From IMG/VR virus record IMGVR_UViG_3300029288_000065, positions 64,001-128,000 of that record: 64,000 nt of DNA, one strand, 5' to 3'. The notes under the pieces are model-generated. The model saw only the letters and a list, made by a program, of their open reading frames with translations. It did not search any database and was not told the origin of the DNA. Position numbers and translations under genes: made by a program. The stretch comes from a virus (lineage: Duplodnaviria; Caudoviricetes). Below, in pieces: positions 2,966 through 60,938 of this stretch. Within the stretch, counting starts at the first letter, position 1. Every line of letters starts with the position of its first letter.

Positions 2966-3174
2966 TAGGAAAAGTGATGATCTTACCCACTTTTGAACAA
3001 GTTTTCCGTGGTGATAAATCTCAAGAAGAATGGGAAAATAATATTCGTGGAATAATCACCAGTTTACGACCATATATGATGGAGAAAGAAATATTTAAAT
3101 CAATTATGAATTCTGGTCGAGGATCTTTAAACCCAATAGAAGTTCGTCGTCTGTTGAACGAGAGGAAACCATGA
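2962..3174 (+). CDS. Small hypothetical protein, C-terminus resembles GatB/YqeY tail
   Basis: IMNSGRGSLNPIEVRRLL resembles the GatB-type 'VMK.TRG.ANP..V..LL'. Confidence 0.35.
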   Translation: MIGKVMILPTFEQVFRGDKSQEEWENNIRGIITSLRPYMMEKEIFKSIMNSGRGSLNPIEVRRLLNERKP

Positions 3175-3464
3175 AACACGCAGTATTTTTCGTAACCATA
3201 ATTGAATTGGACGACGAATTATTCGTTGATGATATGTTTTTCGGTGGTATTGTTGAGGATAAAGACAAAGCAGATTTGCTGGCTCGTGATATTATCAATG
3301 ACAATGGTATTCAGGGTGCTATAGTACCAAAAGTATTGCCGTTGGTTGATAATTTATCAAAAGCGATGGAAATTGCCAATAAATATTTTGTTCGTATGAG
3401 AAATGAGATTTATGATACAGAGACTCGCAGGAAGTCCAAGGATTTATCTAAGAAACAAGCTTGA
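3171..3464 (+). CDS. Hypothetical protein
   Basis: ORF with SD, ATGA-coupled to upstream gene. Confidence 0.55.
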   Translation: MKHAVFFVTIIELDDELFVDDMFFGGIVEDKDKADLLARDIINDNGIQGAIVPKVLPLVDNLSKAMEIANKYFVRMRNEIYDTETRRKSKDLSKKQA

Positions 3465-3476
3465 TAGGAATAATCT

Positions 3477-4079
3477 ATGTGGTACATCTTGAAAGGCAGG
3501 AAATACTTTAAATCTACTGATCTTCGCAAGTGTGATGATCACTTGAAAGATAGACATTCCAGAAGAATAGCGTCTGACTTTATCCCGGATGAAAAACGTA
3601 AAGAGATGACAATTTCGACTGTGTTTCTGAGTTTGGATCATAATATGGGTGGTAGTGGTGGTGGTCCTGTATTGTTTGAAACAATGTGTTTTGGTGGGAA
3701 AATAGATGAGAATACGAATAGATATTCGTCATGGGATGATGCTTTCTTGGGTCATATTAGGATGACTGAACAGGCATTGTTTGAATATTTGAAAATTGAT
3801 GGACAATTTAAGCCAATGGATTTGAAAGCTTTGGTTTACACAGGGAAAATTAAATTTTTTGATGAGACTGACGATACAATCACTGATTGCAGACTTATTG
3901 TTGATGATGGGATTCATCAGCCTTCTACTACTTTTGGTGTGTTTAATAATATTTTCTATAAGAGGATGTTGTGGTCTGAAAAGGAAAAATCTTATAAGAT
4001 TTTCTTTTGGGAAATTGGAGATCCAAAGTGCGATATCTTAAAAGAAGTAAGTCCTTATTCAATGTACTTTAAAAAGTAG
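3477..4079 (+). CDS. Phage hypothetical protein; C-terminal WEIGDPxxD motif
   Basis: ISTVFLxLDH...PVLFETMxF...RYxxWxxAxxGH pattern recalled from phage proteins; ends in TAG. Confidence 0.6.
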   Translation: MWYILKGRKYFKSTDLRKCDDHLKDRHSRRIASDFIPDEKRKEMTISTVFLSLDHNMGGSGGGPVLFETMCFGGKIDENTNRYSSWDDAFLGHIRMTEQALFEYLKIDGQFKPMDLKALVYTGKIKFFDETDDTITDCRLIVDDGIHQPSTTFGVFNNIFYKRMLWSEKEKSYKIFFWEIGDPKCDILKEVSPYSMYFKK

Positions 4080-4196: not shown

Positions 4197-6947
4197 ATGA
4201 TTTTCCAACTTCCAAAAATTGAAGACCTTGTTGATAAGCAATTCTTCCAGGTCCCAGTAGCAGACGGAATTCTGGCAGGATACCAAGTCGACCAAGAAAC
4301 TAAAACATTCTATGCCAAAGAAAGCCAAATAATTATCCCATCAATGCATGGGCTAACACACGTCGCTGAAGACCCAGTACCAGACGCAACACCAGATCTA
4401 CATGGCCTAATGTCAGGAGATGACAAAGCCAAATTGGACGCACTGGTCCAGATGAGATTGGGAATTCTTGGTTACCAAGGAGCGGGCTTCCCAGACGATG
4501 GCGGCTTCCTCACAGGCGACATAATTCTAGCAGCAGGAAGTGAATTTATTAGTATAGAAAGAGTAGGGAACACAGTAAGATTCACAGTTGACTCCCCAAT
4601 CCCATTAAATTGTGGATGCGAGAGCTGCGCACAGATTTTCTGGATACAAGACGAAAGTGAAGCAAGAGCGATCAGACCACCATCTTGCAATGGTGTAATG
4701 CCAAACGTATCAGCTTACGGCGAACTTAAAATATACTTATTACCAGAATCTACTATCGTAGACCCACAAGACCCGTTAACGACGTTAAACACAAAGGGAA
4801 ATTACCCAACACTAATCTTCAAGAGATATGATAATGGTTTAACACCATTCGAAGCGTCATTTGAAATGGTCCTCAAGAGAAACTCAAATTTGACAAGTAA
4901 TGTAGGTTGGGCATTTACACCTGGCCCAACCAATATAGCACAATTAGTATGGTATATGGGAAGTGATAAAAATGGTGCACAAATAAAATTCGAACTTTGG
5001 CCTGATTCAGAACCTGGGCTAATGGGCCAACTTCTTTACCGTGGAAATCTGATCACGAAGATGCCAGCAGTCATCACTGGTTACACGACATCAATGTTGA
5101 CCACAAACCAATATAATGTTAAGAAATGGGATCTAAAAAATGAAGTCCCAGTTGGAAGTGCTTTTGTGGCTAAGAACGTCTGGAAATACCTAAATCCTGA
5201 AAACACAACAACAAACACAACGAACCCAAAGACTCTTGTCTTGGATAATACCGTTGGTATACTCCCAGTTGGAACTTTGGTAGATCTCTACCAATTTGAA
5301 ACAGCCAGAACTGGTCTTTCCAGAACAGTTGTTTCTTACTTCATAAAAGAACCAGCTGCAAATTCTACTAATCTTTGGTCTTTGGCTGGTGCAGTCAGAT
5401 TTGGTGACCGGTTTACCGCCCGTGAAGAAATCAACAACCCATCCACGGGTTCAGATTTGGCAGCAAGTGAATTGAACGTATCAGACGTTAGATTATTTGA
5501 ACGAGGAGAATGGGGTCTTCTTGGTTTTGAAGATAGATTAATTCTCTCAGATGACGGTGGAATAGCTGCGTCCACTGATGGAGTACAGAGGAGAGAACCT
5601 TCCGGTGACCCGATCAACAATGATATAGTTGCTGACATTGATCCTACTATCCCTGGCTTAAAGGTTCTAAAACAGACTCCAGATAGAAGCTCGGTTGACG
5701 TGGATGGTGACGGTGTTGTGACCGACAAAGATTTGGCAGCATTTGCTTGTGCTTATGGTTCCAAAATTGGTGATGCCAATTATAATGTAAAGGCTGATTT
5801 GAATGGTGATGGTCGAGTAGATGTCCGCGATTTGGCAATTCTTGGTCAATTTTTTGATCTTGGTGTCGAGAGGGTTACTGACAGACCACTATTCCTGTGG
5901 AATAGAAGTAGCCATAAGAACGTACTGACTCACCTTCAACTTGGTATGCCAGCAGCTGATGCAAGATTATTCCCACCGTACGATCTTCTTTTATCTGCTC
6001 CAGTTGATAGCTTTGATGATACCTACGTTAGAGTAATCCAACGTGGTGTATTCCAAACTGGACCTTTTGCTGGCGCTCCTTATATTGTTGTAAAAGGTAT
6101 TGAATGGCGAGAACTCCCTCAACAAGGTATTCTAAGAATTTTGACCGGTGCATTCAGAAATATTATATGGAGATATTATTTCAAAGCAGCATTCTCAAGT
6201 GACGACGATGATGGTGTAACTCTTATTGGCCGTGATTATGTCTTCCCATTTGATGAAGATTTCCCAATCCTTAATTTCCGTGGAACATCTTGTACCGTTC
6301 CGGGGGCAACTGATCTACCTGCTACTGATTATAATGTTCCGACAAGTTCCATTTGTTGTGAACTCCTTCATCAAGATTATACAGCTCCGTGTATGAGATT
6401 CCAATTTGAGTCTGATTGGAATACTGGTTCAGAAGCCGTCCAATTACAAATTATTTGTGGCATGCTTGATATGGGTGTTGCTTATACACTCTACGATCCA
6501 GTGACCCATCTTGATGATCTTGTTCGTGGTTTCTCTCCAGGGTATACAGTCAGTAAGATTATGGTTCAGCAAGGTTTCATCACTGACGGGATTGGAGCTG
6601 GTGTTGTTTCAAATCCGACCACGTTTAAGGTTTATTGGGGCGGCGAATTGGCTGTTCCTGTTAGTGGTCAGACTGAGAAATGGAACGAAGTTGAAGTAAT
6701 GTATAAAGATAATCAGGCATGGTTGTGGTGGAATGGTATTTTGGTTTCGCCTGATCCTACTCTTTGTTCCAAGCTTCCTACCCCTGTTGCTGTTAATACG
6801 CCTTATTTCCCGTTACATCCTCAGGTTTCGACTGGGAAAGTTGCTCTTAGAATGTTCCCTGGGGCAATTGTTCGATCCTTTGATGTCAAGGATCAATTGA
6901 CGTCGTTTAATGAATATTCTTATAGTCAGCAGGGGATCACTTCTTGA
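4197..6947 (+). CDS. Large virion structural protein with dockerin-like Ca-binding pair
   Basis: 916 aa; ATPxxxGLMSxxDKxKLD fibre-type motif; DVDGDGVVTDKDL...ADLNGDGRVDVRDL. Confidence 0.7.
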   Translation: MIFQLPKIEDLVDKQFFQVPVADGILAGYQVDQETKTFYAKESQIIIPSMHGLTHVAEDPVPDATPDLHGLMSGDDKAKLDALVQMRLGILGYQGAGFPDDGGFLTGDIILAAGSEFISIERVGNTVRFTVDSPIPLNCGCESCAQIFWIQDESEARAIRPPSCNGVMPNVSAYGELKIYLLPESTIVDPQDPLTTLNTKGNYPTLIFKRYDNGLTPFEASFEMVLKRNSNLTSNVGWAFTPGPTNIAQLVWYMGSDKNGAQIKFELWPDSEPGLMGQLLYRGNLITKMPAVITGYTTSMLTTNQYNVKKWDLKNEVPVGSAFVAKNVWKYLNPENTTTNTTNPKTLVLDNTVGILPVGTLVDLYQFETARTGLSRTVVSYFIKEPAANSTNLWSLAGAVRFGDRFTAREEINNPSTGSDLAASELNVSDVRLFERGEWGLLGFEDRLILSDDGGIAASTDGVQRREPSGDPINNDIVADIDPTIPGLKVLKQTPDRSSVDVDGDGVVTDKDLAAFACAYGSKIGDANYNVKADLNGDGRVDVRDLAILGQFFDLGVERVTDRPLFLWNRSSHKNVLTHLQLGMPAADARLFPPYDLLLSAPVDSFDDTYVRVIQRGVFQTGPFAGAPYIVVKGIEWRELPQQGILRILTGAFRNIIWRYYFKAAFSSDDDDGVTLIGRDYVFPFDEDFPILNFRGTSCTVPGATDLPATDYNVPTSSICCELLHQDYTAPCMRFQFESDWNTGSEAVQLQIICGMLDMGVAYTLYDPVTHLDDLVRGFSPGYTVSKIMVQQGFITDGIGAGVVSNPTTFKVYWGGELAVPVSGQTEKWNEVEVMYKDNQAWLWWNGILVSPDPTLCSKLPTPVAVNTPYFPLHPQVSTGKVALRMFPGAIVRSFDVKDQLTSFNEYSYSQQGITS

Positions 6948-57663: not shown

Positions 57664-58040
57664 ACATAGACCTAAACAACCCAAACTGTGACATAGAAAA
57701 ACTCCTAACAGACTTCACAGCCTACATCATCATAAACTTCCAGTATAAAGACCCATCCACAGGAGGAGCACAATTCAGCGCAAGAATGGTCGGATCATGG
57801 ATAAGAACCAGAACAGATGGACACTTCCATTTCTCCGACATGGGACTATACGGAGACATAGACCCAAGATTTAAAGAAGATGCCATGCGCTTAATAAAAG
57901 CCTGGGAAGCAGTAAACCTTGTAGATGACACAGGAGAAATGACAAATGGATACCGCGTATTCTGTATACCATATAGTTTAGTAATAAAAACAAAATTAGC
58001 AATGGAAAAAGCAATCAAAGAACAGATAAAGCCTGACTAA
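57660..58040 (+). CDS. Small protein of DLxNP family
   Basis: MNIDLNNPNCDIEKL. Confidence 0.6.
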   Translation: MNIDLNNPNCDIEKLLTDFTAYIIINFQYKDPSTGGAQFSARMVGSWIRTRTDGHFHFSDMGLYGDIDPRFKEDAMRLIKAWEAVNLVDDTGEMTNGYRVFCIPYSLVIKTKLAMEKAIKEQIKPD

Positions 58041-58626
58041 TCTCCTCATCAGTAAAAATCTTCTTCTTAGACCAACCATGCAAAAACTTAGACGAAGGAT
58101 TCAAAGAATTCCAATTATAAGCCTTATTATCAACCTCCAACCTCCCACCACCCCACTGAGCAAGAGACCTAGTCAAAGCCGGCTGATCACGCCCACCAAC
58201 AACCAACCACTCACTATGCCAAAGTCCAAATAAATCCCTAACTTTATCTGTAGAAAAAAGTAAAAAACCACTATTATATTGAGGTTTCCCACCAGAAGTT
58301 GGATGCACATCCCTCGTTAAAACCAAATCACCAGAAAAATCCCAAACCTCATCAAAGAGACCAACACACTTAACATCAGAATCCAAAAATAAAGTTCTCT
58401 CATATGGAGTATAATCACACAATTGAGTCTTTAACCACCTTGAAGGATTCTTATCCGTTACTTTTACCTGTTGTATTGTTGCTAGGGTATTCAAATACCC
58501 AGTATCACTCAAATCAGTTAGAACAGTAATTGGTTTGTTGGTAAATTCCCGCAATGAAAGTATACTACATGTACAGTTTATTAAGGCCTCTTCTCCGATT
58601 GCAATTTCAACTATTCCTTGTGTCAT
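58015..58626 (-). CDS. GT8-like glycosyltransferase
   Basis: K...TPYERTLFLDSD, YNSGFL, DQPAL, YN, FLH. Confidence 0.78.
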   Translation of the reverse strand: MTQGIVEIAIGEEALINCTCSILSLREFTNKPITVLTDLSDTGYLNTLATIQQVKVTDKNPSRWLKTQLCDYTPYERTLFLDSDVKCVGLFDEVWDFSGDLVLTRDVHPTSGGKPQYNSGFLLFSTDKVRDLFGLWHSEWLVVGGRDQPALTRSLAQWGGGRLEVDNKAYNWNSLNPSSKFLHGWSKKKIFTDEEISQALSVL

Positions 58627-58636
58627 ATTTTATTTT

Positions 58637-58808
58637 TGGTGCTCCTGGAAGGGTTCGAACCTCCAACCTTCCAATGGGATGAAACCCACCATCTAGTGCT
58701 ACGGATCAGACCCATCACACGAGTCGTCCCTTTAGATGACAGGTCATCACCCACTGGTGCTCCACCGACCCCACTACTGCGATAGTGGAGATTTTGAGCT
58801 ACAGGAGC
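58637..58808 (-). ncRNA. 172-nt tRNA-like RNA with enlarged D-loop and anticodon arm
   Basis: Acceptor GCUCCUG/CAGGAGC + A-CCA; U8A9; D-stem GCUC/GAGC; T-arm GGAGG-UUCGAAC-CCUUC; 33-nt D-loop and 87-nt anticodon arm both fold as hairpins. Confidence 0.8.
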
Positions 58809-58816
58809 AACTCTTT

Positions 58817-59242
58817 TTACTCATCATCGTATACAAGTCTCGGAGGCTTATTCTCCTTGAAATAAGCCCTAACATGTTCCTTTACAACTTCATTAAAACC
58901 ATACTTATTCATAATCTCCTCCAAATTCTCAGACGGCTCATCGCCACCCAAATATGCCTTTTCACCAACACAAATCAAAATATTATCAGCAAACACCTTA
59001 TGATTCCCTCTCACCACGTATGGGGTGGCGTAGAGAGGAGAATCATTACAACACCCACAAGAATGCCTCATTGAGACACCCTCAGCAATCGCGTAAACCT
59101 TCTTACTGGTGAAGTATTGCTTTCTCCACCTGTCAGTTTTTACCTCCATATCTGGAAATTCAATCATCAAGTTCTCGATCTCTGCTACTTCAAGTGCCTT
59201 GCTCTTCAGTTCTGCAAGGTGTTTGTCGATGGACTCTGACAT
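58817..59242 (-). CDS. Phage hypothetical protein
   Basis: AAGGAG SD; DRW...HSCGCCNDSPL motif. Confidence 0.6.
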   Translation of the reverse strand: MSESIDKHLAELKSKALEVAEIENLMIEFPDMEVKTDRWRKQYFTSKKVYAIAEGVSMRHSCGCCNDSPLYATPYVVRGNHKVFADNILICVGEKAYLGGDEPSENLEEIMNKYGFNEVVKEHVRAYFKENKPPRLVYDDE

Positions 59243-59252
59243 GTGTCTCTCC

Positions 59253-59558
59253 TTAGAGAAGCTTTAGTTCTCGGAACCAACCACTATCAACTGACGGGGA
59301 AATTGCCAATGCTGTGTGTGCGTTAATGTCTGGTTCATGGAAAATTGCGTGCTTAATTTCCTTGAACTTTTTCTCCCACGAGAGTAAGTCTTCCTCATCC
59401 TTGACGCCCAGGAGGACCATCGTCTTGTGGTTATTGTTCCAATCCTGTACCTATGGATCAGTTAGGTACCTGGAGAGGAACTCCGCTACAGCATGGCAAG
59501 CCTGTACTGCACGCTGAGAGGGCGAAAGATCCTTACGCACTAGCACATACAACTTCAT
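59253..59558 (-). CDS. Peptidyl-tRNA hydrolase Pth2-family protein with in-frame TAG at codon 36
   Basis: Not in ORF track. MKLYVLVRKDLSPSQRAVQACHAVAEF...TDP*VQDW...KTMVLLGVKDEEDL...FHEPD...TALAISP...LKLL; Pth2 hallmarks on both sides of TAG 59453-59451. Confidence 0.82.
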
Positions 59559-59919
59559 CTCGGAGTCTCCTTTCTTCCTGTATTTCCTTGCCCAGTTCCA
59601 ACCACTTTCTCTCGTATTTCTCGTCTCTGAGTTTCTCCATCAGACCAAATAAACTTCTGTTTGCGTAGGCTATGAGGTATGGGTATTTGTCTGAAATGTG
59701 ACAGGCTCGTTTGTCGTTCTCATTGCGATGGATGTGTAGTGCAATTAACCATTTGGAAGCTTCACGTTTATATCCTACGTAGGTTTTCCAGTTTTTTGAT
59801 TTTGGGTTGATGTGTTCGCCGATTTTGGTTCTAGAGTCTTGTTTTAAATCGGTGATTGCTTTGGCGTTTTTCCGGATGTAGTGCTTAATTACTTCTTCGA
59901 CCGTCAAATTCGTCGTCAT
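59533..59919 (-). CDS. Hypothetical protein
   Basis: ATG 59919 (MTTNL) after AAGGAG. Confidence 0.55.
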   Translation of the reverse strand: MTTNLTVEEVIKHYIRKNAKAITDLKQDSRTKIGEHINPKSKNWKTYVGYKREASKWLIALHIHRNENDKRACHISDKYPYLIAYANRSLFGLMEKLRDEKYERKWLELGKEIQEERRLRDEVVCASA

Positions 59920-59926
59920 CTTAAGT

Positions 59927-59975
59927 CTCCTTAACGGGTTTTGACCGAGGGGGTTGGCCATTACCCGTTAAGGAG
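59927..59975 (-). promoter_or_regulatory. Hairpin pairing with the Shine-Dalgarno of the 59919 gene
   Basis: 13-bp perfect inverted repeat CTCCTTAACGGGT/ACCCGTTAAGGAG with inner TGGCC/GGTCA stem; AAGGAG lies in the 3' arm. Confidence 0.6.
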
Positions 59976-60862: not shown

Positions 60863-60938
60863 TGGCGCTTCCGGAGGGAATCGAACCCCCAACACACTGA
60901 TTTAGATTCAGCTGCTCTACCAATTGAGCTACGGAAGC
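60863..60938 (-). tRNA. Amber suppressor tRNA (anticodon CUA)
   Basis: 76 nt: GCUUCCG UA GCUC AAUUGGUA GAGC A GCUGA AU-CUA-AA UCAGU GUGUU GGGGG UUCGAUU CCCUC CGGAAGC G CCA. Confidence 0.88.

Follow-up and report, generated by a model that had tools for sequence, protein, structure and literature searches.

A conserved phage gene for a tRNA-framed RNA with its anticodon arm enlarged into a rod

The stretch analyzed here, termed the window, comprises the 64,000 nucleotides (nt) at positions 64,001 to 128,000 of the IMG/VR virus record IMGVR_UViG_3300029288_000065. It carries, on its minus strand, a conserved phage gene for a tRNA-framed RNA of 172 nt in which the decoding arm is enlarged into a rod. 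The RNA family is apparently undescribed and belongs to a kind of phage tRNA look-alikes; the titles, abstracts and keyword passages of the literature searched held no description of this architecture. Judged by the alignments, the rod is under selection, with a near-invariant G-U-rich motif helix, and the tip and the D-region inserts vary freely. Quite probably the RNA is a functional mimic that does not decode.

Architecture and conservation of the RNA

The RNA gene starts 8 nt past the stop codon of a gene for a 141-amino-acid (141-aa) protein and ends 10 nt ahead of the next ATG. The tRNA shape reported in the initial annotation, with acceptor stem, A73-CCA, D stem and T arm, was confirmed by sequence and fold; the strand had been omitted there. 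The acceptor stem consists of 7 bp (GCUCCUG/CAGGAGC) and is followed by U8-A9, and the variable region amounts to 6 nt. The 33-nt D loop with its 9-bp hairpin 5' of the GG and the 87-nt anticodon arm with the helices listed for it were likewise recovered (Table 1). The whole RNA folded at -74.4 kcal/mol (z = -3.6), and none of 200 shuffled sequences folded as well. When the inserts were folded separately, z values of -3.7 and -3.5 were obtained for the D loop and the anticodon arm, respectively.

Overlapping contigs from two other sequencing runs covered parts of the RNA gene with zero listed differences, and a second JGI sample was identical to it over at least 150 nt. Because independent contigs and samples agree, the gene is not an assembly artefact. 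Joints seen at the element in run contigs were disregarded, being tRNAs of other organisms at 80% likeness.

ARAGORN with default settings did not call the window RNA, and the Rfam tRNA model RF00005 scored it at 16.6 bits, against a cut-off of 29. The check for an already catalogued Rfam family gave no match for the window RNA, and the four homologues searched against Rfam gave no significant match. Such genes are overlooked by tRNA finders and Rfam. The layout of transfer-messenger RNA (tmRNA), for which G3-U70, no D stem, a tag reading frame and a length of about 300 nt or more were applied, was rightly set aside at the outset, given U3-A70, a D stem and no ARAGORN or Rfam call. The same holds for a group I intron (catalytic core, about 200 nt or more), given the 87-nt rod, no Rfam match and no core motif.

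Homologues were reached via the 141-aa upstream protein, for which six close homologues were found and their contigs inspected downstream of the stop codon. Directly after this stop, four further distinct versions of the RNA were present: L316 (167 nt), L317 (142 nt), L319/L320 (206 nt) and L321/L349-L353 (170 nt). The homologous RNAs all folded at z values of -4.3 to -5.6, and in every member the upstream stop codon and the start of the RNA are about 10 nt apart at most. Across sub-groups, the neighbour proteins share only 60-65% identity. The shell kept by the members consists of G1-C72, C2-G71, U3 paired with A or G, a purine at position 73, CCA, a D stem with GGU before it, and a UUCRA T loop. 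The acceptor stem has 7 bp in the window and L316 and 6 bp in the remaining members, and L317 has a 6/6 acceptor/T branch.

The rod ranges from 52 to 87 nt across members. Its identity between the window and L316 is 94%, whereas four-fold sites in the flanking genes reach 57-68% and the 5' region 73%. In an unfitted MAFFT alignment of the window, L316 and L317, all cells paired (96/96), with four two-sided and eight one-sided changes. A six-row alignment (A5), fitted to the structure and extended by L319, L321 and L353, which were aligned to the model, yielded 98.9% paired cells and 14 two-sided pairs (0/500 shuffles, a count that overstates significance because the members are kin and the alignment leans toward the structure). 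The helix of GACCUG with URGGUU comprises five invariant pairs and one U-G/U-A pair, and the helices flanking it change two-sidedly. Of 200,000 shuffled rods, 4-5 had the motif pair in register, and a model built without L319 and L353 placed their motif in register.

The D-loop hairpin is accessory, because its sequence differs in L316 and the hairpin is missing in L317. L319 and L321 also have no such hairpin and carry instead a large domain between the acceptor and the D stem. The check for covariation in the inserts, proposed together with the original description, was thus positive for the rod, but the D-loop hairpin proved dispensable.

The tip has two competing folds, of which the GACUC-GUGUGAU-GGGUC hairpin has a probability of 0.54 for the window RNA, rising to about 1.0 for two homologues. 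This hairpin is backed by one two-sided and two one-sided changes among the window, L316 and L317; L319 has an 11-nt loop and L321 a tetraloop. Since the tips differ among members, no codon identity is kept. The GU-CUG-AU tip put forward earlier is a possible fold, but it is one of the two competing ones and its CUGA loop is lost in L317; it is not the conserved tip, because the window, L316 and L317 share GUGUGAU while L319 and L321 differ. The one-sided changes of L317 would be compatible with a pseudoknot or switch involving the tip loop and the strand on its 3' side, although L316 breaks the nested form (three sequences). Box C/D-like words in the rod (GUGAUGA, CUGA) were dropped, as they are not conserved in L317 and L319.

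Further members were sought in several ways. No viral or metagenome contig matched the exact or gapped DNA patterns derived from the element. A motif-pattern search returned one viral and 22 genome matches; the 15 inspected were chance matches, several inside coding DNA, and the remainder resemble the same gene family as those. In cultured phages, BLAST matched nothing but ordinary tRNAs, in their T arms. No additional member emerged when 47-80 phage records, most of them related by capsid or Pth2 and many fragmentary, were searched with patterns, BLAST and model R1, nor when model R2 was run over 97 loci. A 177-nt tRNA-like gene of a related phage (L308) does not contain the motif and is a distinct thing.

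Table 1. Features of the RNA gene and its surroundings in the window (minus-strand features are read from the higher to the lower position)
Feature	Position	Strand	Remarks
tRNA-shaped RNA gene, 172 nt	58637..58808	-	read 58808 to 58637; sequence, fold, syntenic homologues
Acceptor stem, 5' strand	58802..58808	-	first three bases GCU across all members
D arm	58759..58799	-	4-bp stem GCUC/GAGC, 33-nt loop, GG at 58765-58766
D-loop hairpin, 9 bp	58769..58790	-	5' of GG; accessory
Anticodon-arm rod, 87 nt	58671..58757	-	
Rod motif, 5' strand GACCUG	58740..58745	-	invariant
Rod motif, 3' strand URGGUU	58683..58688	-	G-U-rich helix with GACCUG
Tip hairpin	58709..58725	-	5-bp stem, 7-nt loop GUGUGAU; only in window, L316, L317
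T arm	58648..58664	-	GGAGG-UUCGAAC-CCUUC; loop UUCGAAC
Acceptor 3' strand, discriminator A73, encoded CCA	58637..58647	-	
141-aa protein gene	58817..59242	-	contains HSCGCC; immediately upstream in all members; occurs without the RNA as well
Pth2-like peptidyl-tRNA hydrolase gene	59253..59558	-	PF01981, E 6.6e-11; in-frame TAG at 59451-59453
142-aa open reading frame (ORF)	59533..59961	-	no function assigned; upstream of Pth2 in L024 and L028 too
Amber (CUA) suppressor-type tRNA	60863..60938	-	
Glycosyltransferase-like gene	58015..58626	-	weak GT8 match; directly downstream; neighbour not conserved

Possible roles of the RNA

The initial annotation had considered the RNA too large to decode unprocessed and possibly a tRNA mimic, which is supported by the folding of the inserts, the covariation of the rod, the lack of an Rfam match and the misfit of the tmRNA and group I intron layouts. 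In the proposed mechanism, the RNA would share a transcript with the amber-interrupted Pth2 gene ahead of it, from which the host tRNA 5' and 3' processing enzymes would release it. Its tRNA-like acceptor end and elbow would then be presented to tRNA-handling proteins, with no decoding, and the invariant rod motif would be a candidate binding site for a protein or RNA partner. Alongside Pth2 and the amber suppressor tRNA, the RNA would most likely act as a decoy or tether through which the phage controls host translation. Taken in full, with a structured, non-decoding RNA that derives from a tRNA, occurs in one clade of T4-like jumbo phages and binds a putative partner by its rod, this explanation is judged evenly balanced. 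The fact that a single lineage (L346-L348 and L354-L356) lost Pth2 and retains only the last 8 nt of the RNA was counted in its favor.

Several observations weigh against it, in addition to the inflated shuffle counts. Only five distinct versions were found, in two sub-groups of a single narrow clade. Sub-group B matched model R1 at 37.9 bits, compared with 37.8 for ordinary tRNAs, and its homology is suggested by position plus motif. L319 and L321 have a weakened T stem along with the 6-bp acceptor stem. Finally, at least 16 Pth2 loci were without the RNA within the fetched flanks, including L024-L037 as well as L318 and L322, where it was not present at the syntenic position. Because it is absent in relatives that retain Pth2, the RNA is dispensable and not an obligate Pth2 partner.

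The relation to Pth2 can be read in two more specific ways. In the first, tentative and with a rather low probability, the element would be the RNA subunit of an undescribed phage cassette for translation control, in which the amber suppressor tRNA would gate Pth2 synthesis and the RNA would tether or inhibit a specific protein via the rod motif. The hydrolase, the 141-aa neighbor or a host tRNA-targeting defense would be the candidate proteins, by analogy with the Y RNA that tethers Ro60. In the second, which is considered quite unlikely, the RNA would be a dedicated partner of Pth2, serving it as scaffold, carrier or substrate-like inhibitor, and amber read-through would gate its use. A Pth2 gene with an identically placed TAG does lie two genes upstream in every member having readable upstream DNA, the lineage without Pth2 also lost the RNA, and other tRNA look-alikes stand beside Pth2 in L009, L052 and L057, the last two being among the top outside scorers for model R2. 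However, the co-loss amounts to one event, the R2 margin over T4 tRNA-Thr is below 4 bits, and D-loop-expanded look-alikes are not enriched near Pth2 (2/49 versus 3/65 loci). At loci with readable upstream DNA, the RNA was never seen without Pth2, whereas Pth2 was often seen without the RNA. Of the Pth2 partnership suggested in the initial annotation, the positional association is what stands, and the many Pth2 loci without the RNA, at least 16 as given above, speak against the remainder.

The constant start of the RNA close to the upstream stop codon would also suit a cis-acting, tRNA-like punctuation mark, excised by RNase P and 3' nucleases, with the freed RNA itself idle. Excision would then stabilize the upstream Pth2/141-aa message or release the downstream one, and in the window and L316 the next ATG indeed lies 10 nt past CCA with no obvious Shine-Dalgarno sequence. 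Such a mark leaves unexplained both an invariant rod motif far from the cut sites and the strong conservation of the rod, and the downstream genes vary between members, which makes it unlikely.

A precursor with unusual introns had been another suggestion. The variants examined were an archaeal bulge-helix-bulge (BHB) intron, a group I or a Lak-type intron, and, related to them, an elongated His-decoding tRNA with a GUG tip. Introns in phage tRNAs are reported in the relevant passages of PMC6784885, the same genome has a tRNA-Leu with a 195-nt intron, and L317 is without the D-loop insert. Every single deletion possible in the arm was tried, and no product had a Y32-U33-NNN-R37 loop; the best one had C37 and a shifted register. 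The BHB scan returned only chance motifs and none at tRNA-restoring sites; it found the motif of the archaeal control L161 at D-loop 15/16 and missed the anticodon-arm introns of the controls, so that it is noisy and of limited sensitivity. Neither EndA nor RtcB (PF01974, PF01139) was found in the 89%-complete record, the 87-nt arm had no group I core match, and no member is without the rod. As no single excision restores an anticodon loop and no splice motif or enzyme was found, an intron precursor is unlikely, and this suggestion was not upheld. As to His decoding, the tip loop is His-like in having G32, U33, GUG and A37. The identity of bacterial tRNA-His, however, is C73 with G-1, unlike the A73/G73 of the element, and the tip is not conserved. 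Taken together, a spliced or His-decoding tRNA is given a very small chance.

The patchy distribution among close relatives and the clean deletion in one lineage might also be expected of a decaying tRNA pseudogene enlarged by hairpin duplications, and some long tRNA matches in other viruses (L018, L023, L099) are duplication artefacts. The compensatory changes, the invariance of the motif across sub-groups and a rod more conserved than synonymous sites have already largely refuted this explanation, which is hardly credible.

Comparison with known RNAs

Compared with a canonical class I tRNA, the element has the acceptor, D stem, GG, T loop and R-CCA. It differs in its arm of 87 nt instead of 17, in the 33-nt D loop, and in having no 5-bp stem with a Y32-U33-NNN-R37 loop. 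Its frame is identical to the CUA tRNA at 13 of 15 bases at the 5' end and 21 of 28 at the 3' end, and to tRNA-Thr(UGU) at 14 of the 15 bases at the 5' end. As the frame is equally close to both, the element probably arose from a tRNA of the Thr(UGU)/CUA type.

The T4 RNAs rnaC and rnaD (species 1 and 2 small stable RNAs, NC_000866), the function of which is given as still unknown in the passages concerning them (PMC9697503, PMC3014915), are likewise phage RNAs exceeding tRNA size and without known function. The fold computed here gives rnaC a stem resembling an acceptor, a T arm whose loop reads UUCGAAU, a long rod in the D region and, in place of the anticodon arm, a lengthened arm. However, models R1 and R2 gave no match to either RNA and the rod motif is absent, so that they are not homologous to the element; moreover, they lie in a tRNA cluster, whereas the element stands alone behind Pth2.

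YrlA, a bacterial Y RNA, resembles the element in that a long helix extends from a tRNA-like elbow at the anticodon position. In the sections of PMC4201824 on this RNA, the long helix is a protein-binding handle, and YrlA is permuted, with its acceptor closed by a loop and its two ends lying in the long stem, carries GNCGAA(N)G near its 5' end and lies at most 4 kb from Ro60. The element has neither GNCGAA(N)G nor the permuted topology, and no TROVE (Ro60) gene was found in the record.

Lak megaphage tRNA genes are also oversized phage tRNA genes with conserved inserts, which, in the part of PMC6784885 devoted to them, were defined against intron-less alleles of typed tRNAs. In contrast, there is no allele of the element without the rod and no excision yields a normal loop, the D-loop insert alone being missing in L317. 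The pseudo-tRNA tRNA-Other of Bacillus cereus and the allo-tRNAs are about tRNA-sized, and we know of no 50-90-nt anticodon rod in either. They are similar to the element in being tRNA-shaped, with non-standard roles or an altered acceptor/T branch, as described in the excerpts of PMC3399842 and PMC5389517, respectively; the 6/6 branch of L317 is the counterpart on the side of the element.

The family is small, patchy and limited to uncultured phages, and similar look-alike families seem common. Its natural variants nevertheless separate the dispensable parts (D-region inserts and tip) from the core (acceptor end, elbow and six-pair motif). This provides an unusually clean handle on oversized phage RNAs such as rnaC and rnaD, and the place of the gene behind a conserved amber-interrupted Pth2, together with the core motif, makes the function of a look-alike experimentally addressable.

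Gene neighborhood and other unusual tRNA genes

The window belongs to a virus record of 233,959 bases, 89% complete, from a T4-like jumbo phage. The major head protein is T4-like (phrog_138), with the nearest cultured relatives about 31% identical. Sequencing runs with this DNA were landfill and groundwater metagenomes; the run search listed no RNA dataset with it and is uninformative on expression. A bacterial host is suggested by a tRNA-Met(CAT) with a 1:72 mismatch and by the tRNA-Leu with a group I-like intron.

On the strand of the RNA, the order is CUA tRNA, three ORFs, Pth2 with its TAG, the 141-aa gene and the RNA. The 141-aa protein family comprises at least 390 clusters, HSCGCC was invariant in seven aligned members, and no Pfam, PHROG, Atlas or PDB fold match was obtained. 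In the lineage without Pth2 and the RNA, a gene of the Acb1 family, directed against the cyclic-oligonucleotide-based anti-phage signaling system (CBASS), was located just upstream of the 141-aa homologue (L346:4959-5525).

Pth2-like genes and CUA tRNAs make up a conserved pair, with a CUA tRNA within about 2.5 kb of Pth2 in 11 of 14 other viral Pth2 loci, mostly directly behind the gene. An in-frame stop also occurred in the same Pth2 loop in L024, L025, L031 and L037. In the window and the syntenic loci this stop is TAG, yet TAG terminates many other genes. Genome-wide recoding of TAG was disfavored, as 52 of 287 long ORFs end in TAG and the gains under codes 4 and 15 were unspecific.

Viral tRNA-shaped genes with D-loop hairpins were common in pattern scans, with about 40 distinct sequences, a few of them duplication artefacts. 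They measured 90-124 nt, with one or two D-loop hairpins and mostly non-canonical anticodon arms (examples are L011, L022, L039, L047, L052, L057, L072, L088 and L122). A canonical anticodon loop was present in only 4 of 30 distinct arms of these D-loop-expanded look-alikes, and model R2 detected the rod of the element in none of them. A 245-kb phage has, about 400-800 nt behind Pth2, an array of several tRNA-shaped genes in which neither the anticodon loops nor the T loops are normal (L009:4040-4435).

Two further tRNA-framed genes, of 177 nt (L308:9493-9669, minus strand) and about 190 nt (L012, ~4934-5124), are unrelated to the rod; in both, the D loop is normal and the anticodon arm is replaced by a large branched domain. 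The architecture of the element is mimicked by archaeal-type tRNAs that have inserts both in the anticodon arm and in the D loop (L161:4463-4627 and L158), and these served as splice-motif controls. A complete tRNA nested in the anticodon loop of another tRNA was seen at L042:4972-5124, L153:1669-1818 and L079:2869-3022, which recalls the Lak tRNA-in-tRNA.

In the genome of the window, outside it, the tRNA-Leu(UAA) with the 195-nt group I-like intron was located at L157:3555-3836, with an upstream ORF (3080-3739) extending into it. The same contig carries two tRNAs of the serine type, whose T loop is AUCGAGA and which have a variable/T block in common (L157:1015-1101 and ~1495-1577). At L027:2306-2400 lies a 95-nt tRNA-Ile(UAU) whose variable region forms a second, anticodon-like hairpin (GAU), and the tRNA cluster of Caulobacter phage BL57 contains a tRNA-like gene that is not annotated and has an unusual D arm (L001:1465-1538).
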